36,973 nucleotides of DNA, from the NCBI GenBank assembly GCA_964478985.1, contig CAYZJW010000001.1, forward strand, positions 9,969-46,941, given 5' to 3'. Below are positions 1 through 30,389 of the stretch, in pieces. The notes beneath the pieces were generated by a model that was not told the DNA's origin, made no database searches, and was given only the letters and a program-made list of their open reading frames with translations. The stretch is from an uncultured Actinomycetota bacterium. Its GTDB lineage: Bacteria; Actinomycetota; Humimicrobiia; Humimicrobiales; Humimicrobiaceae. Each line of letters starts with the position of its first letter. Position 1 is the first letter of the stretch. The position numbers and the translations under genes were made by a program.

Positions 1-72
1 CTACCATCTTACTGTAGCGCATATACCGATAAGCGAACCCAGTATCATAAGTATCCTGTAAAGCTTCTTCAT
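1..72 (-). CDS. 23-aa hydrophobic micropeptide (MKKLYRILMILGSLIGICATVRW), unannotated
   Basis: Hand-translated from the reverse complement; it is below the 60-aa cutoff of the track. AGGAGG at 81-86 lies 8 nt upstream of the ATG at 70-72. The TAG stop at 1-3 is flush with the window edge. It is co-directional with the upstream operon. Confidence 0.35.
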   Translation of the reverse strand: MKKLYRILMILGSLIGICATVRW

Positions 73-90
73 CTTTTCCACCTCCTCTTA

Positions 91-258
91 TTATTTGCCC
101 GGATTTTCATTTTGGTACCAATCCATGAATATCCCTATATATTCTTCCAGCTGATCTTTGAATATCAGTACCAGTATTAATATTATTAAGACCGCAATTA
201 CTGCTATGGCTGTCTTCTCCCATACCGTAAGGCTCCTTTTTTCTCCTTCTCCGGTCAT
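91..258 (-). CDS. 55-aa single-pass membrane protein, unannotated (MTGEGEKRSLTVWEKTAIAVIAVLIILILVLIFKDQLEEYIGIFMDWYQNENPGK)
   Basis: Verified codon by codon. The ATG (256-258) overlaps the TGA (255-257) of the upstream HTH gene as ATGA. It has a clean 20-residue hydrophobic helix flanked by charged residues, and TAA at 91-93. It replaces the implausible 60-aa track ORF 107-289 in another frame. Confidence 0.55.
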   Translation of the reverse strand: MTGEGEKRSLTVWEKTAIAVIAVLIILILVLIFKDQLEEYIGIFMDWYQNENPGK

Positions 259-638
259 GATCTCCTGGTCCTGCTTTCGATGAAATCATCCAGACTGTCA
301 GAAGGTATCCGCCAGGAACTTCTTCCTTCCCTTATCTTGAAACCCTTGAGTTTTCCTGTTTTTAGCAGGTTCCATATATTGTCAATAGAAAGCTTCAATA
401 TCTTTGCCACCTGCTCCGCCGTGTACAGGACCCGGTCTGGTGATGCTTTTTCCTGCTCCTGTTCCCCCACAAAACTGTCCAGGAAATCCTCCAGCTCCTC
501 TTCCTTTATCCTTATAGCTTTCCCCACCCTTATTGCTTTTAGCTTCTTGAGCATGACCACTCTTATTATCTCTGTCTCACTTATACCGGTCAGTTCTGAA
601 ACCTCGCTTATGGTATAAAGTTTTTTTTCATCTCCCAT
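255..638 (-). CDS. DNA-binding protein with two tandem excisionase/MerR-type HTH domains
   Basis: Two repeats of the same pattern. Repeat 1 is LYTISEVSELTGISETEIIRVVMLKKLKAIRVGKAIRIKEEELEDFL. Repeat 2 is LYTAEQVAKILKLSIDNIWNLLKTGKLKGFKIREGRSSWRIPSDSLDDFI. They are joined by an acidic linker. The start lies 1 nt after the upstream stop. Confidence 0.8.
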   Translation of the reverse strand: MGDEKKLYTISEVSELTGISETEIIRVVMLKKLKAIRVGKAIRIKEEELEDFLDSFVGEQEQEKASPDRVLYTAEQVAKILKLSIDNIWNLLKTGKLKGFKIREGRSSWRIPSDSLDDFIESRTRRS

Positions 639-639
639 A

Positions 640-1710
640 TCAAAAAACCCTGCTTATAAGACCGTCCATGCTGTCTTGAAGGTCTATTATCCCTGCAGGC
701 CTTCCGCTGCTGATCAAATATTTCCTTTTTGCCTCGCATATAAAGGGAATCTTTTCACAAAGAGCGATGCCGGTCATATCCTCCAGTTCATCAGCGGTAA
801 GCCGGTTTGTATCATCAGCCCTGTTTAAGACAGCCAGTTTTTTCTGTCTGCCGGGAAGGAATTTATTAAATGCCTTTATCCTCTGGATCATGTCTATGTC
901 CTGCGATATCACCAGCACTGAAGTGGTGGATATGTTTATCATCTCCAGTGAGATATTGTCATATCTGAAGGGCAGGTCAGCAACTATCATGTCGTATTCA
1001 TTACGGGCAGAATAGACCAGGTCGTCCAGCATATCGATACTGAACTTTTCACCCCTGTAAAGGGAAACGGGCGGGCATAATACATCAACCCCCTCAAAGC
1101 TGGATATATCCTTCCAGACATCTTCATCACCCGCCAGGACATCTTCTGCAAAATGGTCCAGGCTGCGCGGATTTTTCATGCCAAGAGCCAGATGCATATC
1201 CGATGGCCCCTCACAAAAATTAAGGTCTATTACCAGGACCTTTCCCATATCCCTGTCATTGAATCTTCTGGCCATATTGAAAGCCATGGATGTCCTGCCG
1301 GTCCCTCCCTGTACGGAGTAGAAAGAGACGACCTCCTGTTTCAGGAACCTGTATTGCCCGGCATCATTTTTTTCTGCAGGTCCAATCCTGTCTATGGCCT
1401 GTAGTATATCCTGGAAACCCATCTTTGTGTCGGGACATCCTGTGCATGCAGCTCCCGGGAGTATATCGTTATTCCTGCTGCTTCCTGTTATTATTAGCTT
1501 TGAATCCGAATTTAGAGTAATAAAATCAGAGATCTCCCTGAATTCCTCTATTTCATCTGATAGTAAGATATAATCCGGCATATATTCTTCTATATAATGC
1601 CTGTAATTATATTGGAGGTTTAGTGCAGTCAATCTGTGGCCTCTGGATTGGAAGCTGCCTATATTATCAGATATTTCCCTGTTATTTCCTATATAAAGTA
1701 TCATTCCCAT
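640..1710 (-). CDS. TadZ/CpaE/Ssd-like ParA/MinD-family protein: receiver-like N-domain plus atypical P-loop domain
   Basis: About 130 aa of N-terminal receiver-like fold (MILYIGNN..DYILLSDEI..KLIITG). The ParA-like core follows: VVSFYSVQGGTGRTSMAFNMA (Walker A position), KVLVIDLN, and DMIVADLP (Walker B). Confidence 0.7.
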   Translation of the reverse strand: MGMILYIGNNREISDNIGSFQSRGHRLTALNLQYNYRHYIEEYMPDYILLSDEIEEFREISDFITLNSDSKLIITGSSRNNDILPGAACTGCPDTKMGFQDILQAIDRIGPAEKNDAGQYRFLKQEVVSFYSVQGGTGRTSMAFNMARRFNDRDMGKVLVIDLNFCEGPSDMHLALGMKNPRSLDHFAEDVLAGDEDVWKDISSFEGVDVLCPPVSLYRGEKFSIDMLDDLVYSARNEYDMIVADLPFRYDNISLEMINISTTSVLVISQDIDMIQRIKAFNKFLPGRQKKLAVLNRADDTNRLTADELEDMTGIALCEKIPFICEAKRKYLISSGRPAGIIDLQDSMDGLISRVF

Positions 1711-1843: not shown

Positions 1844-1883
1844 TTGACATTTCTATAATAAATCTATTATACCGCTATGTCAA
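1844..1883. promoter_or_regulatory. Two-fold symmetric divergent promoter-like element (TTGACA ... TGTCAA)
   Basis: Minus strand: TTGACA (1878-1883), N17, TATTAT (1855-1860), pointing at the TadZ-like operon. Plus strand: TTGACA (1844-1849), N15, TATTAT (1865-1870). The arms ATTTGACAT and ATGTCAAAT are exact reverse complements. Confidence 0.4.
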
Positions 1884-2028
1884 ATCTTTTTGTTATTATC
1901 TGGTATATGGCGTGGTTTTCCGGTTATGGCCGGTATTTACTGGCAAAATTGCAGTTGATGGTGAATAAATAGCTGATGTTTTCGGCAGAAGCTGTTATTT
2001 CTGTGATTATTGGCCGGGAGCCTTTTAA

Positions 2029-2328
2029 TTACCGGATTTTCTGGCTGTTTTTTAGCAGGACACCTGAATAATCTATCGACTGGTCTCCTTCAACCTGTAT
2101 CTTCTTGTAATTTGATGCAGCGCCAGATATTATCCTTATCTTTTTCTTTGCTACTCCGGTGATCTCCGAGATCAGACTGATAAGCTCCCGGTTTGCTTTT
2201 CCTTTTTCTGGGGCTGCTGCCACCCTTATCTTTATCCTGTCCCCGTAAAGGCCGTCTATTTTAGTCCTGGCAGCATTGGGTCTTATATAAAAGTCATAGA
2301 TATCAGTCATCAGTTTTGAAGAAATCAT
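2029..2328 (-). CDS. yggU: DUF167/YggU family protein
   Basis: About 96 aa with IKIRVAAAPEKGKANRELISLISEITGV, matching the YggU pattern V.A.P..G.AN..L. It is the last gene of the ylm block. The start could instead be the ATG at 2310, which overlaps the divIVA stop. Confidence 0.8.
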   Translation of the reverse strand: MISSKLMTDIYDFYIRPNAARTKIDGLYGDRIKIRVAAAPEKGKANRELISLISEITGVAKKKIRIISGAASNYKKIQVEGDQSIDYSGVLLKNSQKIR

Positions 2329-3136
2329 TTATAATATCAGGATTAGCAATATCTATCTTTTTCCTGTCTTTTTTTAATTCTTCTTCATCTTCTTTATCTT
2401 CCGGTCCTGCATTATCTTCTTTTACGGGATCCGTTCCACTTTTTTCATCACTTTCGCCGTCGTCCAGCTTTTCCAGCATCTCATCCGTAAGTGCCGCCAG
2501 GTCCTTCAGGTCGTTTTCTTCCAGGCTGCTATCCCTGCCGTCTTTCCTGGCATGTTTGTAGACAACCTCTTCCCTGATGTTGCTGCTGCTGCCGGGCTGT
2601 TTTTCCCCGATTGCCGTTTCCTGGCCGCTGCTGCTGTTTTGTCTCTTGCTTTCGTTTTCCGCAGCCTCAAGGGAATCCATCAGTTTCCCGTCCCCCACCG
2701 AGGCCATCTTCTGTTTGAAATCATCGGCAAATCTTGATATCTGCTGTTTAAACTCAGAATATTCTTTCCTGAGGCTGGTAATGCCGGATTCCAGGGAGAC
2801 CTTTTCATCGCGGAGCCTCCTTAATTCCTGTTCTTCCTCTATCTTCTTTTTTCCCATCATCTCTTCAGCCTCGATCTTTGCCTTCTGCTTGATGTCTTCT
2901 GCCATGCGGTGGGCGGATATGAGGGCTTCCTGTATTACTTTTTTCATCTTGGAGGATTCGGTATCGCCTTCATATTTGATGGTGTCTATTCTTTCTTCCA
3001 TTTCCCTGATCTTTTTCTGCATCCCTTCAAATTCCATAGCCAGAAGATCAAGGAATTTATCTACTTCTTCAGGCTTGTAGCCCTTAAAGACTATATGGAA
3101 TTCCTTTTTGTGAATACTTTCAGAACTTAAACTCAT
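2303..3136 (-). CDS. divIVA: DivIVA-domain cell-division/polarity protein
   Basis: N-terminal IHKKEFHIVFKGYKPEEVDKFLDLLAMEFE, the DivIVA lipid-binding signature. A coiled coil and a long acidic tail follow. GGAGGT Shine-Dalgarno sequence upstream. Confidence 0.9.
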   Translation of the reverse strand: MSLSSESIHKKEFHIVFKGYKPEEVDKFLDLLAMEFEGMQKKIREMEERIDTIKYEGDTESSKMKKVIQEALISAHRMAEDIKQKAKIEAEEMMGKKKIEEEQELRRLRDEKVSLESGITSLRKEYSEFKQQISRFADDFKQKMASVGDGKLMDSLEAAENESKRQNSSSGQETAIGEKQPGSSSNIREEVVYKHARKDGRDSSLEENDLKDLAALTDEMLEKLDDGESDEKSGTDPVKEDNAGPEDKEDEEELKKDRKKIDIANPDIINDFFKTDD

Positions 3137-3465: not shown

Positions 3466-4287
3466 CTAGGTCATTTCCCTTTCAAGTTCCCGTGAACGTT
3501 TAAGCGCGCTTTCTACTGCTTTTTCCACTATCTCAGGCAGCCCTTTTTCCCTGAAAGCCAGAAGAGCCCTTTCAGTGGTCCCTCCGGGGGATGCCACTTT
3601 TGATATAAGCTCTTCCATATCTATGCCCGATCTCATTATCATCTCTCCTGACCCGGTCATGGTTACCGCAGCCAGCTTCCTGGCAGTACCGGGGTCCAGC
3701 CCGTTTTTTATGGCTGCTTCTATAAGCGCCTGGCAAAAAAGGAAAAAATATGCCGGACCGCTCCCGTTTATAGCTGTGGATATGTGCTGGAGGTCCTCAT
3801 CGATGATGCTGCATTTTCCCACTGATCCCATGAGCTCCATTACAAAGTCCAGTTCACTCTGAGCCGCATACTTTCCCCTGCTAATGGTTATCATACCTTT
3901 TTTATAAAGCGCGGGCGTATTCGGCATCACCCTTAAAACGGAAGTCCCCTGGCCCAGGTTTTTCTCATAATAGGAAGTGCTGATACCGGCAGCTATGCTT
4001 ATTATGCAGTTATTTTCTTTCCTGAAACAATCACCCATGGTCTTTATAAGTGCGGCAATATCCTGGGGCTTTACAGCTATTATGAGATATTTTGATCTTT
4101 TTACTATAGTGCAGATGTCTGTAAAAGACTCGATCATGTATTTATTTATTATATAATCCCTCCTGGAAGCATCCTTTTCCAGGAAACCCACATCATCCGG
4201 CCCCAGGAAAGACATCTCCAGAAGACCATTGAGTATCGCCTCACCCATATTTCCGCAGCCTATAAATGAGATCTTCTTTTCTTTCAA
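3466..4287 (-). CDS. proC: Pyrroline-5-carboxylate reductase
   Basis: Rossmann motif ISFIGCGNMGEAI and C-terminal VASPGGTTERAL signature. TTG start with AAGGGGA 7 nt upstream. Confidence 0.92.
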   Translation of the reverse strand: MKEKKISFIGCGNMGEAILNGLLEMSFLGPDDVGFLEKDASRRDYIINKYMIESFTDICTIVKRSKYLIIAVKPQDIAALIKTMGDCFRKENNCIISIAAGISTSYYEKNLGQGTSVLRVMPNTPALYKKGMITISRGKYAAQSELDFVMELMGSVGKCSIIDEDLQHISTAINGSGPAYFFLFCQALIEAAIKNGLDPGTARKLAAVTMTGSGEMIMRSGIDMEELISKVASPGGTTERALLAFREKGLPEIVEKAVESALKRSRELEREMT

Positions 4288-23790: not shown

Positions 23791-24225
23791 CTAAAATCCC
23801 AATTCCTCAAATGCATCCTGGTCCTCAGAGAACTGGGAATCAGCCTTATTATAATAACTGTTCCAGTTTTCCTCTGACCAGATCTCTGCCCTGTCCGATA
23901 CTCCTACCAGGACTATTTCTTTTTTCAAACCAGCATATTCTATCAGGTTCTGGGGGATCCTGGTCCTTCCCTGCTGGTCTATACTTTCCATGGAAGCTGA
24001 TGAGAAAAACCATCTTGAGAAACTCTGTATATTCCTCCTGGCCATGGGATTCTCCGCTATCTTATCCTCTATCCTCTTCCATCCTTCCCTGGAAAACATA
24101 AACAGGCACTTCTCATCGAAACCTTTGGTGATTATTACTCCCTTTATTATTTCTTCCCGGAACTTTGCAGGGATGAATATCCTGCCTTTACTGTCTATTG
24201 TCCTGCGATGTTCGCCTAAAAACAT
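23791..24225 (-). CDS. mraZ: Transcriptional regulator MraZ
   Basis: Two SpoVT/AbrB-type repeats: DSKGRIFIPAKFR and DQQGRTRIPQNL. It is the first gene of the dcw cluster. Confidence 0.96.
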   Translation of the reverse strand: MFLGEHRRTIDSKGRIFIPAKFREEIIKGVIITKGFDEKCLFMFSREGWKRIEDKIAENPMARRNIQSFSRWFFSSASMESIDQQGRTRIPQNLIEYAGLKKEIVLVGVSDRAEIWSEENWNSYYNKADSQFSEDQDAFEELGF

Positions 24226-24256
24226 TTACAGCCTGCCGGACCATTTTTAACAAAAT

Positions 24257-24295
24257 AGTGGGAAAACTATTCCATTTTCCACCACTTTCCCCCAC
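24257..24295 (-). promoter_or_regulatory. Putative MraZ operator: three GTGG-type boxes at 10-bp phasing
   Basis: The minus strand reads GTGGG-ggaaa-GTGGT-ggaaa-ATGGA (24271-24295). An inverted GTGGGAAAA copy lies at 24258-24266. The site is 32-70 nt upstream of the mraZ ATG. Confidence 0.5.
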
Positions 24296-24466
24296 ATCAC
24301 ACCAATAAAGTACCATATTAAACATCATTTGTAAACTAATTTTTAAAAAAATAGTAAAAATAATTATTATTATTTAGTGGATTTTTTATTCAATAATAAT
24401 ATCTAACTATATATTGTTATTGAATAAGACAATATGATATGCATACACAATATATTGTGCAGACTG

Positions 24467-24706
24467 TCAGTTTTCCCTGTCTATCTCCAGTTCCCTGGCA
24501 ACCAGCCTTCCTTCTTCTGACCTGGTAAGCTCTTCTATCTTCTGTTCCGCCTGGTTCAGCTTTTTGAGGCAATGGGAAGAAAGCTTTATGCCCTGTTCAA
24601 ATCTCTGCATGGAATCCTCCAGAGATATATTTTCATCTTCCAGCTTTTTAACTACCTCTTCCAGTTTCTCCAGCGCTTCCTCAAAATCCATTTTATCGAT
24701 GTTCAT
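24467..24706 (-). CDS. xseB: Exodeoxyribonuclease VII small subunit
   Basis: 79 aa, all helical: FEEALEKLEEVVKKLEDENISLEDSMQRFEQGIKLSSHC. The start lies 1 nt after the xseA stop. Confidence 0.9.
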   Translation of the reverse strand: MNIDKMDFEEALEKLEEVVKKLEDENISLEDSMQRFEQGIKLSSHCLKKLNQAEQKIEELTRSEEGRLVARELEIDREN

Positions 24707-24707
24707 G

Positions 24708-26069
24708 TTAGATCCCCGACCCGGATAATCTTTTTGTTAATATCTCAAGCACCCTGGCTTTGATGCTTCCGTCTCCCAGCTGTATCCCAATATCATCGCC
24801 GGGAGAAACTGCTTTTACGCTTTTTATGCTTTTATCCTCTATGGTGATTATGGCAAAACCTCTTTTAATTATATTTGCCGGGCTGTTTTTCTCAAGGCTT
24901 TCCATGGTAAATCCGGCAAATCTTTTTTTGCTCTCTATATGGTTGGCAATACTGTTTTTCCACCTGAATATATTATTCTTAACAGTAAGCCTGGCCGAAC
25001 CGATGCGCGAGATTATCCTTTCCCGCCTCAGCCCGGCATTCCATCCGGCCAGGACCTTTCTTTTCTTGCCGGTGATGTCTTCCATATTGTCTTCTAGACC
25101 CCTGAGCGCCATGACAGTATCCTGGTATTTAGCCCCCAGGAGAGTGTCGGGCCTTAGAAAATATTTTCTGTCTATAAGGGACCGCAAATACCTCCGGTAG
25201 TTTTTGGCCAGTCCCAGGGATCTTTCCCGCATGGCTGCCGCCGCAGTCTTGATATCCCTGGTGATCTTTTCCTTGTCCAGGATCACGTTTTCAGCGGCTA
25301 CCGATGGAGTAGCAGCCCTGAGGTCTGCCACAAGATCTGATATGGTAAGATCTGTCTGGTGCCCGACTGCCGAGATAACAGGGATGGTGCAGTCATATAT
25401 GGTGCAGGCCAGTTCCTCGCTGTTAAAACCCCACAGGTCTTCCAGGGAACCGCCGCCCCTGGCTATTATTATTACGTCCACACCGTACTGGCATAGATCT
25501 TCTATGGCCTGGCAGAGATCTGCCGCTGAGGTCATGCCGCCAACATTTACATTCCTTACTATGAGATGAAAATTAGGGAACCTTTTTTCCAGGACAGATA
25601 CCATATCCTTAAGCACCGCCCCGCCGATGGATGTGGCTACTCCTATCCTCTGCGGGAGCATGGGTATCTTTTTTTTCTTTCCGCTGTCGAAATACCCCTT
25701 TTTTGAAAGTTTATCCTTTAACTGCTCAAAGGCCAGTATCAGGGCACCTTTTCCCACGGGACGGGCATCAAGAGCTATGACCTGGTATTCACCCCTTTTT
25801 TCGTAGACAGAGACATAGCCGTTCACCTGCAGGTGCAGTCCTTCTTCCATATCAAATACCAGCCTGCGGTTATTCTGATGGAACATCACTATCCTGACCT
25901 TGCTGTCTTCGTCCTTCAGGTCAAAGTACATATGCCGGGAGTTATGGAAAAAGAAATTGCTTACTTCTCCTTCCACCCAGATATCGGGAAAGCTGCCTTC
26001 CAGGTCCTGCCTGATCAGGCGGTTTAATCCGCTTACGCTGTAGATGATGGGAATATTACTGTTATTCAT
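24708..26069 (-). CDS. xseA: Exodeoxyribonuclease VII large subunit
   Basis: N-terminal OB fold (IWVEGEVSNFFFHNSRHMYFDLKD) and catalytic core (IIIARGGGSLEDLWGFN, AVGHQTD). Confidence 0.93.
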   Translation of the reverse strand: MNNSNIPIIYSVSGLNRLIRQDLEGSFPDIWVEGEVSNFFFHNSRHMYFDLKDEDSKVRIVMFHQNNRRLVFDMEEGLHLQVNGYVSVYEKRGEYQVIALDARPVGKGALILAFEQLKDKLSKKGYFDSGKKKKIPMLPQRIGVATSIGGAVLKDMVSVLEKRFPNFHLIVRNVNVGGMTSAADLCQAIEDLCQYGVDVIIIARGGGSLEDLWGFNSEELACTIYDCTIPVISAVGHQTDLTISDLVADLRAATPSVAAENVILDKEKITRDIKTAAAAMRERSLGLAKNYRRYLRSLIDRKYFLRPDTLLGAKYQDTVMALRGLEDNMEDITGKKRKVLAGWNAGLRRERIISRIGSARLTVKNNIFRWKNSIANHIESKKRFAGFTMESLEKNSPANIIKRGFAIITIEDKSIKSVKAVSPGDDIGIQLGDGSIKARVLEILTKRLSGSGI

Positions 26070-26079
26070 CGGTATAGCA

Positions 26080-26631
26080 TTACTGGAGATCCCAGTATGT
26101 AACCATTATCTGGGTCCTGTCCGGTGACAATTCCTTTACCAAAACATCGACCACCCTGTCCCTGTCTTTGCTGGAAAATGTATATTTGGTTATGAGTATA
26201 TCATCGTCCTGGCCGCCCGCAAACTCTTCTTCCAGTTTGGCCATGCTTTTCTGGTAGATAAAATCCCGGTTCCAGATAGACTGCACTTTTTTATTCCTGT
26301 AATATTCTTCCACAACCGCAAATGCCTCATCTGTCTCCAGGATCACATATATGATCTCCTGTTCCTCGATAAGGGCTCTTGCTTCTTCCACCCTGGAATC
26401 CGGGTAGTAGAAAGTATCGAATGTCTCCAGGAAATCCTTATTTCTCAACAGCTCCTCAAACTCTTCTTCGGTGAGTTTTCCGCTATCCCTGCCTTCTACT
26501 TCTTCTATATTTATGGCTGAAGTATCCCCCGGACTAAAAAGACCGGAAAAGATACAGGAACTGGTTAATGCCGGGACAGCTGCCAGAAATATGCATAACA
26601 TGATTATGGCCCATTTTCTATTCTTCATCAT
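26080..26631 (-). CDS. Hypothetical acidic lipoprotein
   Basis: Signal peptide MMKNRKWAIIMLCIFLAAVPALTSSC with a relaxed lipobox. I recognise no catalytic motif. It ends 10 nt before xseA. Confidence 0.55.
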   Translation of the reverse strand: MMKNRKWAIIMLCIFLAAVPALTSSCIFSGLFSPGDTSAINIEEVEGRDSGKLTEEEFEELLRNKDFLETFDTFYYPDSRVEEARALIEEQEIIYVILETDEAFAVVEEYYRNKKVQSIWNRDFIYQKSMAKLEEEFAGGQDDDILITKYTFSSKDRDRVVDVLVKELSPDRTQIMVTYWDLQ

Positions 26632-26640
26632 ATCATCCTT

Positions 26641-27102
26641 TTAAAGTGTAAAAAATATTCTGTACAGTATATAGGAACAGAAAATAATCTCCACGGAAGC
26701 CATGATAATATTCAGTACATTCTCATAACCTTCTGTACGCTCCATCAGGAGTTTTACCGGCTGTTTCATGAATCTTTTTATCTTTGGCAAAAACCTCGCC
26801 ATTGAATAAATCGAGTATCCCACCAGTATCGAGCTTCCCAGTATCACTATATTGTCATTAAAAAGGTACACGCAATAAACAAAATAACCGATCTCGGCCA
26901 GGTTCAGCGCTATTATTACTCCCAGGGACATGATCACCGGACCGCCGGCCGCCTGGCTGCCTGTTTCCAGCTCCGGCATACTCTCCTCCAGCCTGGCAGC
27001 ATCTTCGGCCAGCACCCCTTTTCCCCTGGCCCTTATCATAAATCTTAAACTTGAAACATGCAACCAGATCAATATTATCGATAAAAATGTTAATAAAATC
27101 AT
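26641..27102 (-). CDS. Hypothetical 4-TM membrane protein
   Basis: About four hydrophobic helices and a charged loop (AEDAARLEESMPELE). I trimmed to the ATG at 27102 because the track start at 27105 is TTG. There is no Shine-Dalgarno sequence. A TATAAT (27112-27117, minus strand) lies just upstream, so a leaderless transcript is possible. Confidence 0.55.
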   Translation of the reverse strand: MILLTFLSIILIWLHVSSLRFMIRARGKGVLAEDAARLEESMPELETGSQAAGGPVIMSLGVIIALNLAEIGYFVYCVYLFNDNIVILGSSILVGYSIYSMARFLPKIKRFMKQPVKLLMERTEGYENVLNIIMASVEIIFCSYILYRIFFTL

Positions 27103-27189
27103 CAATACATAATTATAATATTATTTTTAAGATTTGGGAATACATTTGAACACTTATGCAGAGGAGTGGAGAATAAGCCAGAAGTCCTG

Positions 27190-27495
27190 CTATTTTGCCG
27201 GTTTTTTGGATTCCACCCTGTCTTCTTTTGGCCTGACCCCGGTTTCCGGTTTTTTATCCTGACCCTTTTCATCATTTTTTTTGCCTGCCTGGGAATTATT
27301 TATGGAACTTTTATTACCCGGCTTATAGTCTGTACTGTAAAAACCGGAACCCTTAAATATTATACCTACGGGAGAAAAAACCCTCCTGGTATCAGACTTG
27401 CACTTTATACAGGGCACGCAGCCATTTCCTCCGGGCTTTACCAGCTTATCGAAGGTCTCTCCGCATTTATCACATCTGTAGCTATATATCGGCAT
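27190..27495 (-). CDS. FmdB-family zinc-ribbon protein
   Basis: MPIYSYRCDKCGETF...CIKCKS...FKGSGFYSTDY (the CxxC...CxxC type), with a basic low-complexity tail. I trimmed to the ATG at 27495, which has AGGGGAAG upstream. Confidence 0.8.
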   Translation of the reverse strand: MPIYSYRCDKCGETFDKLVKPGGNGCVPCIKCKSDTRRVFSPVGIIFKGSGFYSTDYKPGNKSSINNSQAGKKNDEKGQDKKPETGVRPKEDRVESKKPAK

Positions 27496-27526
27496 TGTTT
27501 CTTCCCCTACTATGGACCAGGAAGAA

Positions 27527-27555
27527 AATATATACCAATTGGAAATTTTAGTCAA
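27527..27555 (-). promoter_or_regulatory. Sigma70-like promoter for the fmdB-like operon
   Basis: On the minus strand: TTGACT (27550-27555), N17, TATATT (27527-27532). It lies about 30 nt upstream of the ATG at 27495. Confidence 0.4.
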
Positions 27556-27571
27556 ACATTTTTACCAGTTT

Positions 27572-27580
27572 TGCTATAAT
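27572..27580 (+). promoter_or_regulatory. Extended -10 element (TGcTATAAT) for the lone plus-strand gene
   Basis: TGCTATAAT at 27572-27580, 23 nt upstream of the ATG at 27604. I see no good -35 element. Confidence 0.35.
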
Positions 27581-27603
27581 GTCAGGCGGAAACACTATAA
27601 TTT

Positions 27604-28050
27604 ATGAATAAGACAAATATAATCATAATAATAATCTGTACTGCAATAATTGCTGCAGCCGCCTATTTATCTTTAAGGGAAGAACCGTTAATAAGAGATA
27701 TATACCTGGCAGACAGCCTGGATCCGGGACATGGATTCCCCCGGGATGAAGATATCCGCCACTTTGACAGCAGTGATCCCGGCATCTACCTGATAATACA
27801 GGTAAGTGACATTGAAGAGGGCCAAAGACTGAAAACGGAATGGGTATTCTTAGGAGATGGCGGACAGAGCATAATGCAGACTGATGATATAGTAATTAAC
27901 GACGACGGAAGCGGCAGTATTGCGGTCTACCTGGTCAAAAGGGACGGTCTCTATGCCCCCGGTGATTACCTGGTAAAAATAGGTCATGCTGGTACTCAGC
28001 AAAAACAGCTGACATTCTCGGTAAGCGGCGGTCAGGCGCCAGAACCGTGA
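27604..28050 (+). CDS. Hypothetical N-terminally anchored exported protein
   Basis: The N-terminal transmembrane or signal anchor NIIIIIICTAIIAAAAYL is followed by about 115 aa of beta-rich acidic domain. It is the only credible plus-strand gene, and its 3' end overlaps the convergent 2PGK-like gene by 19 nt. Confidence 0.6.
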   Translation: MNKTNIIIIIICTAIIAAAAYLSLREEPLIRDIYLADSLDPGHGFPRDEDIRHFDSSDPGIYLIIQVSDIEEGQRLKTEWVFLGDGGQSIMQTDDIVINDDGSGSIAVYLVKRDGLYAPGDYLVKIGHAGTQQKQLTFSVSGGQAPEP

Positions 28051-29003: not shown

Positions 29004-30389
29004 CTATTCTATCAATCCCATAAGTTCTTTTTTAAAGCTGCTTCCCCTTTTGGCTGCCACCGGGATATTATCGATAAATGAGACTTCCTTTTTGTTCTCG
29101 GAAGCATAGCGGGTAAGGACATCTACCGCAGCTGCCTTCAGTTCGGTAAGTATGGTATCAAAAGCCGGGCTGGCGGCCAGGTCTTTTCTCAGTTCCTGCC
29201 TGTTTGAGAGGTTGAAGCTGGCTGACGCTACCCGGCATCCGTATTCCTTCTCCATATATTTAATTATTTTATTTTCTATTGCCGGGCTGGCAGTCATGGC
29301 CAGGAATACTTTCCTGCCTTTTATATTTGACAGCGGTTTGGGTCTGAATACAGTCCTTAACACTGCTGCTCCCGGATTATATTTTTTTATCTCTTTTTCC
29401 AATTCAGCTATCTTATTGCTGTCTGCCATCGGTTCTTCGCACATGGTAAGGATTATAAGGTCTGCCAGGATTATCCTGTATATCCCCAGATACCCTATGA
29501 TGCTGGTCCAGTCCTGGAAAGCTCCGATGACGCAGATCCTGGCGTCTGTGTCTATTCCGGGTATGGAAGCACCGCTTCCCTCTACTATCAAAAGGTCCGG
29601 GCCCAGGCTTTCGGCTATTCTTGCACCCTGTTCCAGATTGGTCATGAATATATCACCGGCAAAACCCCCGCCGCATCTCCTGCAGCCTATAGTGGTTATC
29701 TCGCTCAGCATTGCATCTTCAATATAATCAGAACTGGCATGAAGTCCTTTCCGGTTAAGTCCAAGCAGGTATTCCGGGTTAATATCTATTTCATCACCTT
29801 TTATGACCTGCGGTTCCGCAGGGCCTCCCCTTCCCATTGCCAAAACGGCTGTTTCAATATCCTCCTCGGAATATAATTTGGCCGCATATGAACTTATTGC
29901 CGTCTTTCCTATCCTCTTTCCTGTACCTATTATGGAAATCGACTTTACGGAAAGCCTGATATCTTGCCTCTGGCTCTCAAAAAGGAAATCCGGCCCCATA
30001 TAACTGCATCCTCTGGCAATGCAGAAAGATGCTATCTTCATCCTGGACCTGTAGTCCACCACCGGTTCATCACTCAGGTCATATGCTATATCGGGCTTGA
30101 AGTGCTTAAGGGCTTCCGTAAAATCATGGTCCAGGTCACTTATGATATATACTTTTCCTCCGAAATAGTCTTCCAGGTCATCCATCACCAGCTTTTCGCT
30201 CCCGCCCAGAAACACGATGCCGGCAAAACTTCCTGTAAAACAGTCTTTCAGCATGGCCAGTGCATCCCTGGTCACATCAGGATAGTGTTCTCCGTCTATC
30301 AGGGCTATAAGCTTTTTATGCCTGTTGTCTTTTCTCCGTAATAAATTTTTCACAGAGCTTAGCCTTCCTGCCCACCCTTTTGACTCCAA
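29004..30389 (-). CDS. cpgS: Cyclic 2,3-diphosphoglycerate synthetase-like protein
   Basis: About 450-460 aa, with N-terminal LIALIDGEHYPDV and central P-loop IIGTGKRIGKTA. It is adjacent to the 2PGK-like gene. The track start is TTG (30389). A GTG at 30353 with AGGAAGG upstream is an alternative start. Confidence 0.6.
   Translation of the reverse strand: MESKGWAGRLSSVKNLLRRKDNRHKKLIALIDGEHYPDVTRDALAMLKDCFTGSFAGIVFLGGSEKLVMDDLEDYFGGKVYIISDLDHDFTEALKHFKPDIAYDLSDEPVVDYRSRMKIASFCIARGCSYMGPDFLFESQRQDIRLSVKSISIIGTGKRIGKTAISSYAAKLYSEEDIETAVLAMGRGGPAEPQVIKGDEIDINPEYLLGLNRKGLHASSDYIEDAMLSEITTIGCRRCGGGFAGDIFMTNLEQGARIAESLGPDLLIVEGSGASIPGIDTDARICVIGAFQDWTSIIGYLGIYRIILADLIILTMCEEPMADSNKIAELEKEIKKYNPGAAVLRTVFRPKPLSNIKGRKVFLAMTASPAIENKIIKYMEKEYGCRVASASFNLSNRQELRKDLAASPAFDTILTELKAAAVDVLTRYASENKKEVSFIDNIPVAAKRGSSFKKELMGLIE

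Follow-up and report, generated by a model that had tools for sequence, protein, structure and literature searches.

A TadZ-like protein, a tandem helix-turn-helix protein and a pilin-like peptide encoded behind divIVA in an uncultured actinobacterium: a probable remnant of a Tad pilus locus

The window considered here is a stretch of 36,973 nucleotides from an uncultured member of the Actinomycetota (class Humimicrobiia), and the part that concerns us is its beginning, where four genes on the minus strand (g1 to g4) follow divIVA and yggU. All four open reading frames are present as listed in a preliminary description made from the sequence alone, including the tight junctions it reported: the g1 stop codon TGA occupies positions 642-640 and a single base separates it from the ATG of g2, and the ends of g2 and g3 are joined by an ATGA overlap. 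The features are given below in the direction of transcription.

2303-3136, minus strand: divIVA, upstream context
2029-2328, minus strand: yggU/DUF167, overlapping divIVA by 26 nt
1914-1927, minus strand: candidate direct-repeat operator, two [AT]AAC[CT] copies (ATAACC, AAAACC), proposed from motif enrichment
1855-1883, minus strand: promoter-like element TTGACA-17-TATTAT, sigma-70-type, 11 of 12 consensus positions
640-1710, minus strand: g1, 356 aa, pseudo-receiver plus MinD/ParA-type P-loop domain, TadZ/CpaE-like
255-638, minus strand: g2, 127 aa, two tandem HTH_17 domains with a variable acidic linker
91-258, minus strand: g3, 55 aa, single transmembrane helix
79-85, minus strand: Shine-Dalgarno sequence GGAGGTG of g4, found before 32/32 g4 copies in 23 genomes
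1-72, minus strand: g4, 23-aa hydrophobic peptide MKKLYRILMILGSLIGICATVRW, its stop codon at the window end

The unit appears to be transcribed from a promoter of its own. The TTGACA-17-TATTAT element precedes the g1 start codon by about 145 nt, within a 318-nt AT-rich spacer after yggU, and the same arrangement (TTGACA-N17-TATTAT) stands before g1 in about 30 of 40 related loci. The preliminary description had correctly spoken of such an element, but its position (1883-1855) falls outside the range 1-1710 to which it was assigned. Upstream of the -35 hexamer the motif [AT]AAC[CT] occurs at a density of 1.85 per 80 nt, against 0.70 in shuffled sequences and 0.41 downstream (27 loci), and neighbouring copies are spaced 10-11 nt apart in 11 of 25 cases. 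Judged from these sequence statistics, the pair of copies just upstream of the -35 is a candidate operator. Rfam gave no credible match, whether positions 1-2400 were scanned with permissive E-values or the whole window with gathering scores, so the AT-rich leader corresponds to no known riboswitch; no tRNA genes are found in the window. A look for RNA sequencing runs containing the region turned up none.

The order divIVA-yggU-g1-g2-g3 is kept as far as the contigs extend: it recurs in 44 species-level genomes and in all the more distant relatives examined, and in one clade the yggU-to-g1 gap is only 23-96 nt. Such recurrence goes far beyond chance. Linkage of the genes to one another and to divIVA-yggU, which had been proposed as a check on the preliminary description, therefore holds throughout the clade. 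The apparent lack of Tad secretion genes, noted earlier at a point where the window ends, is borne out by longer contigs, as none follow in any extended contig; no match to tadA/B/C/E/G or cpaB turned up in the window and the roughly 0.8 Mb of related loci searched, the lists of neighbouring genes agree, and T2SSE and T2SSF genes are absent within about 10 kb in each of more than 50 loci. Neither a tad locus downstream nor a breakdown of linkage, the two findings named beforehand as contrary to the preliminary description, was thus encountered.

g1 belongs with TadZ and CpaE in both fold and ancestry. Its AlphaFold model (pLDDT 78) consists of a five-stranded receiver-like N-domain and a MinD-like P-loop domain, which together with a match to Pfam AAA_31 (28.6 bits; cutoff 27) agrees with the earlier reading of a receiver-like domain fused to a ParA/MinD-like one. 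The NCBIfam models minD_arch and CpaE_hom_Actino/Ssd both score under their cutoffs, the latter (TIGR03815) at 41 bits, far under its 154-bit cutoff. The top Foldseek match of the model, and its best full-length one, is the Eubacterium rectale TadZ structure 3FKQ (360 columns, E 4e-11), followed by the CpaE-like structure 3EA0; the MinD-like proteins FleN and BcsQ are also among the fold matches. The closest g1 sequences outside the clade are proteins encoded in tad loci, and g1 shares 27% identity over 272 aa with one such outgroup protein, P0242. Exhaustive profile searching reveals a continuum from the g1 family to longer receiver-ATPase proteins, whereas word-indexed searches with g1, as a single sequence or as a profile, gave a false "gap" below E 1e-64; the Tad-locus relatives surfaced in the exhaustive search only. 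The TadZ/CpaE-like label of the preliminary description is upheld by the 3FKQ match and by the Tad-locus setting of the closest outgroup homologues, and g1 is descended from TadZ/CpaE-type positioning proteins.

The motifs of g1 depart from those of active MinD-type ATPases at several positions. The Walker A sequence is SVQGGTGRTS (residues 132-141) and the family pattern is QGG[VT]G[KR]T[ST]; 91/91 members carry Gln at the signature position. The P-loop Lys is retained as K in 86/91 members and replaced by R in 5/91, and is N in a sister lineage; the Arg of the window's g1 is lineage-specific and no family trait. The preliminary description had both lysines absent, which is correct for the window's protein but does not extend to the family, where Gln is invariant and the P-loop Lys is mostly kept. 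Sister lineages with the same synteny still have Lys at the signature position, and Gln is also found there in P0248, an outgroup TadZ from a Tad locus, so Gln alone is no proof of changed function. The switch motif is DLN, aligned to the DgD/DaD of archaeal and Aquifex MinD with Asn at the second Asp, and N164 is invariant. In the receiver-like domain the phospho-acceptor position, at the end of strand 3, is taken by S51 (at least 90% conserved), which in the alignment faces the Asp of P0242. At the C-terminus, where MinD has its amphipathic membrane-targeting helix, the model shows a helix whose sequence is not basic (residues 345-355, DSMDGLISRVF; family consensus end IF). A classical ParA-ParB partition pair was ruled out, since g1 lacks catalytic residues and has TadZ proteins as its nearest relatives.

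Set beside its relatives, g1 combines shared and divergent features. In common with TadZ/CpaE it has an atypical receiver without a phospho-acceptor, a MinD/ParA-like domain and an atypical Walker A motif, and the second Asp of the MinD DxD is missing from both g1 and TadZ. It differs from the TadZ Walker A consensus K/RGGXGXS/T (bioRxiv 10.64898/2026.07.08.737194) in having Gln rather than K/R at the first position; it is shorter than TadZ/CpaE, with a degenerate receiver, and it lies after divIVA-yggU in every genome rather than in a tad locus. Most members of the g1 family retain the P-loop Lys that is missing in many TadZ proteins. With MinD, g1 shares the P-loop fold and the overall topology of the ATPase domain; unlike MinD, it has no KGGxGK[ST] motif, no DxD catalytic Asp and an extra N-terminal pseudo-receiver, and it is not accompanied by minC or minE. 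Ssd (Rv3660c), the actinobacterial CpaE homologue named septum site-determining protein, is still encoded beside tadA-like genes, unlike g1.

The outgroup loci indicate where the neighbouring genes came from. The homologues P0242, P0245 and P0248 sit in loci of the form tadE-tadZ-HTH_17-(cpaB)-tadA-tadB-tadC-flp, and P0249 in a classical tadZ-cpaB-tadABC-Flp_Fap-tadE locus. Taking the outgroup order tadE-tadZ-tandem HTH_17-cpaB-tadA-tadB-tadC-flp and removing cpaB-tadABC yields g1-g2-g3. The second gene fits this scheme closely: g2 is collinear with the outgroup tandem HTH_17 protein over both domains (29% identity, E 6e-14) and is descended from the tandem HTH_17 protein behind tadZ in the outgroup Tad loci. 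Pfam PF12728 (HTH_17) matches g2 in two stretches with 87.4 bits (cutoff 27) and TIGR01764 with 65.9 (cutoff 28.8), and each half superposes on BldC (6AMA/6AMK; TM 0.76-0.83, rmsd 1.7-2.0 A) and on the Xis proteins 4J2N and 8DGL (1.3-3.1 A for the whole set), in keeping with the two excisionase-type HTH domains that had been described. A search of the PDB by sequence returned no BldC chain; its matches were limited to one designed repeat protein and a weakly scoring Xis.

The likeness of g2 to BldC and to Xis/RdfS-type excisionases thus lies in the fold of each half. BldC is a single domain of about 68 aa; g2 is a fused tandem of 127 aa with an acidic linker, has no significant sequence match to BldC and has its translation coupled to that of a TadZ-like gene. 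In 2018 Schumacher et al. reportedly observed BldC binding direct repeats head to tail, an arrangement that the covalent tandem in g2 would mimic. Across the class g2 is 65-82% identical, compared with 34-52% for g1, and no other protein of the neighbourhood is as conserved, SepF and DivIVA included.

We think it rather probable that g1-g2-g3 is what is left of a Tad (Flp) pilus locus which, in the Humimicrobiia-type Actinomycetota, has lost cpaB, tadA, tadB and tadC locally and has become fixed directly after divIVA-yggU with its own promoter. g1 and g2, and with them perhaps g3, are better described as such a remnant than as a novel type of positioning system, an origin that the preliminary description had missed. 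The third gene is the most equivocal part of this reading. g3 encodes the 55-aa single-pass membrane protein noted before, with one transmembrane helix, a basic N-terminus, an invariant Glu-Lys that opens the helix and an amphipathic tail ending in W-Y. It occupies the slot of flp once cpaB-tadABC are deleted and has the layout of a Flp pilin: Flp/Fap pilins likewise have 50-58 aa, a short basic leader, Thr at +2, Glu at +5, one hydrophobic helix and a short amphipathic tail. Glu at +5 is found in 32/32 members and Thr at +2 in 28/32, and the register matches the outgroup Flp sequences G/SEITE and G/ATLIE. In contrast to Flp/Fap, the Gly at -1 is unconserved (15/32), Lys stands for Tyr at +6, and Pfam and profile matches are sub-threshold. 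Pfam Flp1_like scores 21 bits (cutoff 33.5) in 3/24 members, with other generic transmembrane families as frequent, and the probability that hhalign assigns to a match with either of two outgroup Flp proteins is 1-2%. As the Pfam scans (24 members) and the hhalign comparisons were both non-significant, g3 is not classed here as a pilin; its layout and position appear Flp-pilin-like, the homology being statistically unproven.

The same observations bear on whether the genes might still serve a pilus. In a split but working Tad system g1 would be the TadZ, g2 its regulator and g3 its Flp, with tadV, cpaB and tadABC encoded elsewhere and the position behind divIVA either incidental or a means of polar placement. 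The homology of g1 and g2 to Tad-locus components and the Flp-like length, basic leader, Thr and Glu of g3 are what such a system would offer, and the search for machinery covered loci only, so that tadA/B/C and a prepilin peptidase may sit elsewhere. A substrate of prepilin peptidase would not tolerate loss of the cleavage-site Gly or of the leader, whereas g3 has the Gly in fewer than half of its members and the sister-lineage g3 begins MRWWEK, without a leader; from these two observations we conclude that g3 is no longer a processed pilin. The lack of any Tad machinery gene within about 10 kb of the >50 loci also counts against a split system. In favour of a split system, TadZ has been described as a polar localiser (bioRxiv 10.64898/2026.07.08.737194). 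Against it, a single-cell study of a UBA1414 actinobacterium reports only a few type IV pilus genes in the genome (PMC7325909), and beyond that remark the Humimicrobiia/UBA1414 literature examined is silent on the g1-g4 locus. Taken together, we regard a split working system as unlikely.

The position behind divIVA invites another interpretation, in which g1 is a MinD/MipZ/ParA-like protein that places the division site or the chromosome together with DivIVA, g2 is a DNA-bound partner, centromere-like or nucleoid-occlusion-like, and g3 and g4 are membrane factors that set where or when the septum forms. It can point to the invariant attachment of the unit to ftsZ...sepF...divIVA-yggU, to the narrow gap behind yggU in one clade and to a conservation of g2 that exceeds that of SepF and DivIVA. 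A further point in its favour comes from Ssd (Rv3660c) of Mycobacterium tuberculosis, an actinobacterial protein of the TadZ/CpaE type like g1, which blocks septation when overexpressed (PMC3095998). Against it stand the missing signature Lys and catalytic Asp of g1, the lineage-variable P-loop Lys and the lack of a MinC, MinE or ParB-like partner, no minC or minE having been found in the window or in the neighbouring gene lists. Patterning of the ParA/MinD type requires an ATPase cycle. Synteny is the sole link to division, and in most genomes the unit has its own promoter. This interpretation seems to us improbable, and the "division-site or polarity module" of the preliminary description, which had that synteny as its only basis, is unsupported as stated.

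The end of the unit carries g4, the 23-aa hydrophobic peptide with a strong Shine-Dalgarno sequence of the preliminary description; its reality as a gene is backed by a pN/pS of 0.25 and by the invariance of GGAGGTG (85-79 in the window) in 32 copies. In other genomes g4 is a tandem repeat unit present in 1-3 copies. The window ends on the last base of one perfect 86-nt g4 repeat copy, and because it stops exactly there we take the contig end to be an assembly break; a two-copy g4 repeat was overlooked by Tandem Repeats Finder and shown by another repeat search. The downstream neighbours in relatives, absent from the preliminary description, are repeated g4, an HD-GYP gene and a gene for a 191-aa membrane protein. 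Between g4 and the HD-GYP gene lies a conserved TGnTATAAT promoter belonging to the latter, which rules out g4 as an HD-GYP leader peptide; a lipoprotein signal is likewise ruled out, the Cys being unconserved and a lipobox absent. HD-GYP and g4 are both missing from one whole clade that retains g1-g2-g3.

This neighbourhood also bears on a purely transcriptional reading, a switch of the FleN-FleQ type in which g1 antagonises the transcription factor g2 by binding it, g2 controls the HD-GYP gene among others, and g3 and g4 are sensors or modulators, with no spatial role. It can appeal to the DNA-binding fold that g2 shares with the developmental regulator BldC, to the conserved promoters with direct repeats upstream, to the HD-GYP neighbour under its own promoter and to FleN and BcsQ among the fold matches of g1. 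The clade that keeps g1-g2-g3 without HD-GYP and g4 argues against it, and it overlaps with the remnant reading instead of excluding it; as an account of its own we consider it very improbable.

Returning to the Tad remnant, a working mechanism can be sketched from the motif residues and domain folds. g1 would be an ATP-binding scaffold with poor or no hydrolysis, a view that follows from the invariant signature Gln, the variable P-loop Lys, the DLN switch and the Ser at the phospho-site, and it probably works through nucleotide-dependent or constitutive dimerisation, with its pseudo-receiver domain probably recruiting proteins as in TadZ. With two BldC/Xis-type winged helices linked covalently head to tail, g2 is expected to recognise direct repeats in DNA, for which the TAACC-type repeats upstream of the unit's own promoter are candidates, and it is probably the partner that g1 now controls or localises. 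The putatively pilin-derived, bitopic g3, independent of prepilin-peptidase cleavage, is probably a membrane anchor. g4, a genuine repeated micropeptide, more probably functions with the MASE9-HD-GYP phosphodiesterase, as the two are gained and lost together. That DivIVA ties the module to a pole or septum may be supposed from the invariant synteny, the sole basis for it. Joining these elements, we offer as a tentative and rather doubtful proposal that the locus is an exapted, DivIVA-linked module in which a hydrolysis-dead TadZ descendant with a pilin-derived anchor tethers or releases a tandem BldC-like DNA-binding protein at the pole or septum.

To our knowledge the Actinomycetota have no Min system and the placement of their septum is still an open question, and we know of no claimed MinD-like regulator there other than Ssd, itself a TadZ homologue. 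A TadZ descendant without a local pilus machine, fixed where the division cluster ends in divIVA throughout a deep-branching class and accompanied by an exceptionally conserved tandem BldC-type DNA-binding protein, is a natural test case for whether, and in what way, cell-cycle or developmental control has recruited pilus-positioning proteins. Should tadABC exist elsewhere in Humimicrobiia genomes, the finding would shrink to an unusual split Tad locus. The locus also adds three small-protein families without prior names, namely the tandem HTH_17 protein, the pilin-like peptide of 50-58 aa and the peptide of 20-24 aa. If the exaptation reading is true, the module would tie cell division to the chromosome or to a developmental regulon and would show a route by which TadZ/Ssd-type proteins gain division functions.

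Downstream of divIVA and yggU, at the end of the window, lie four minus-strand genes (g1 to g4), which a preliminary description made from the sequence read as a TadZ/CpaE-like ATPase, a double-HTH protein and two micropeptides. The four-gene observation as such was confirmed: the open reading frames were found as described and all the listed details of the unit are correct, and only the range assigned to it, 1-1710, must be widened to take in the promoter-like element.

Gene layout in the window
3466-4287: proC (pyrroline-5-carboxylate reductase), between sepF and yggT within the division cluster
2303-3136, minus strand: divIVA
2029-2328, minus strand: yggU/DUF167, 26-nt overlap with the 3' end of divIVA (2303-2328)
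318-nt spacer between yggU and g1, ~25% G+C
1883-1855, minus strand: promoter-like TTGACA-17-TATTAT
640-1710, minus strand: g1, 356 aa
255-638, minus strand: g2, 127 aa, start codon 1 base past the g1 stop
91-258, minus strand: g3, 55 aa, ATGA overlap with g2
1-72, minus strand: g4, 23 aa, GGAGGTG ahead

The overlapping divIVA-yggU pair is kept in all related loci, and the proC insertion in all related genomes. Elsewhere in the window, three ORFs (183, 154 and 461 aa; 26080-27105 and 29004-30389) are without Pfam match, and two 1-kb stretches of low G+C (24001-25000, 0.38; 27001-28000, 0.41) gave no tRNA and no Rfam match.

Metagenome contigs reaching 200 kb encode proteins identical to g1 and g2, and extension past position 1, which the preliminary description had called for, revealed no tad gene downstream. 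One or two g4 copies lie 3' of g3 on these contigs; in other assemblies of this organism the duplication is a perfect 86 nt from Shine-Dalgarno sequence to stop codon, with a 33-nt spacer (locus L007, 10553-10757), and other species have one to three copies with periods of 113-171 nt. Because the window stops exactly where one g4 copy stops (the last base of the repeat copy at window 1-86), the contig end can be put down to a repeat that broke the assembly. Past g4 come a 417-aa MASE9-HD-GYP c-di-GMP phosphodiesterase and p191, a multi-pass membrane protein of 191 aa that matches no Pfam family (L007 10826-12661), and further on convergent glycosyltransferase, 5-formyltetrahydrofolate cyclo-ligase and DegV genes.

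Homologues of g1 and g2 occur in uncultured members of the Actinomycetota; those that carry a name are Candidatus Humimicrobiaceae or Hydromicrobium (class Humimicrobiia). The order sepF-proC-yggT-divIVA-yggU-g1-g2-g3-g4(1-3 copies)-HD-GYP-p191 recurs in 44 species-level genomes as far as contigs reach, in which g1 is 34-52% identical to the window protein and g2 65-82%, above SepF, ProC and DivIVA, its second HTH domain being near-invariant. One clade, in which the yggU-to-g1 gap is only 23-96 nt, retains g1-g2-g3 and jointly lacks g4, HD-GYP and p191. In three sister lineages, and in the members that diverge most (29-32% identity), the order is divIVA-yggU-g1-g2, then a small ORF.

The best explanation of this arrangement is an orphaned Tad remnant that has been re-used. 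Whereas word-indexed searches with g1 gave a seemingly isolated family, an exhaustive profile search revealed a continuum (31 proteins at E <= 1e-30; 527 at E <= 1e-10). P0242, P0245 and P0248, which come next in relatedness, have receivers of canonical appearance, share the LIDLNFxEGPxD motif and are encoded within complete Tad loci ordered tadE - TadZ-like gene - tandem HTH_17 - CpaB-like - tadA - tadB - tadC - Flp-like (58 aa, …DERG/SEITEQIFW…) - tadG-like; the more distant P0249 lies in a classical tadZ-cpaB-tadABC-Flp_Fap-tadE locus. Across both of its domains, g2 aligns collinearly with the outgroup tandem HTH_17 protein, and the outgroup order minus cpaB-tadABC is exactly g1-g2-g3. With the outgroup Tad proteins as queries, tblastn gave no match to the window or to Humimicrobiia-type loci totalling ~0.8 Mb. 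The Tad subtype with a tandem HTH_17 between tadZ and cpaB/tadA is seen at L059 8531-8998, L062 1838-2227 and L060 2541-2918; no description of this protein as a Tad accessory was found in the literature searched.

The AlphaFold model of g1 (pLDDT 78) comprises a five-stranded receiver-like domain, with Ser at the phospho-acceptor position, and a MinD-like domain, and matches TadZ of Eubacterium rectale (3FKQ) best, over the full length, followed by CpaE-like 3EA0, archaeal MinD and BcsQ. ATP hydrolysis by the sandwich dimers of MinD and Soj depends on two residues, the signature Lys and the second DxD Asp; in g1 the former is Gln in 91/91 family members and the latter an invariant Asn. Since both residues are replaced, we infer that g1 may bind nucleotide and would hydrolyze it poorly, like TadZ. 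The P-loop Lys is retained in 86 of the 91 and is Arg in five, from at least four lineages including the window's, and across the divIVA-linked clade residues 134-141 read KGGSGKT, KGGTGKT or KGGAGNT (the variants of sister lineages with the same synteny), QGGVGKT or QGGTGRT; this variation, with the Lys-to-Arg changes, suggests relaxed constraint on catalysis. The TadZ Walker A consensus is K/RGGXGXS/T (bioRxiv 10.64898/2026.07.08.737194), from which g1 departs at the first position (Gln). The TadZ/CpaE-like assignment thus stands on fold and ancestry, but not on locus context or the first Walker A residue.

Both halves of g2 adopt the winged-helix fold of BldC and Xis-type excisionases. BldC is a head-to-tail binder of direct repeats, and g2, as a fused tandem, would by analogy bind in the same way. 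Direct repeats of [AT]AAC[CT], often spaced 10-11 nt, lie just upstream of the -35 element (window ~1914-1927) and are enriched upstream of the g1 promoter (1.85 per 80 nt versus 0.70 in shuffles, 27 loci), making them a candidate operator to which a tandem HTH protein could bind. This promoter is conserved in ~30/40 loci and a conserved TGnTATAAT element separates g4 from HD-GYP; as each has its own promoter, g1-g4 and HD-GYP-p191 are probably separate transcription units.

The micropeptides g3 and g4 are real genes. The 32 g4 copies from 23 genomes have a common frame, the GGAGGTG Shine-Dalgarno sequence and a C-terminal V-R-W, with pN/pS = 0.25 and saturated synonymous sites; sister-lineage locus L057 (9558-9926) has two copies of a 20-aa variant (MAKFFKMVLSMIGFGSTVRW). 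Although the transcription units are probably separate, g4 and HD-GYP co-occur, and g4 is missing alongside HD-GYP and p191 from the one clade and also from a distant lineage; this joint absence suggests a functional link between g4 and the phosphodiesterase. For its part, g3 has an invariant Glu-Lys where the helix begins and W-Y close to its end, and shares with Flp proteins its length, basic leader, Thr at +2, Glu at +5 and hydrophobic helix; Pfam and profile comparison with Flp gave no significant match. The cleavage-site Gly is present in only 15/32 members, and the sister-lineage homologue in the same stretch of L057 starts directly with MRWWEK, without leader and with the Glu at residue 5. 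Probably, then, g3 derives from Flp yet has ceased to be a substrate of prepilin peptidase, which speaks against a pilus as the present product. On the loci searched (the window and ~0.8 Mb of related loci), the main rival, a Tad system that is split but working, is the less probable reading; the UBA1414 study, covering one genome, names no more than a few genes for type IV pili (PMC7325909).

We consider it reasonably probable that the orphaned Tad remnant was instead re-used, in which case g1 would act as an ATP-binding scaffold and g2 as its DNA-binding partner, with a membrane peptide completing the module. From the invariant synteny we infer that this module is tied to division or polarity, for which the effect on septation reported for Ssd, a TadZ homologue (PMC3095998), is a precedent.
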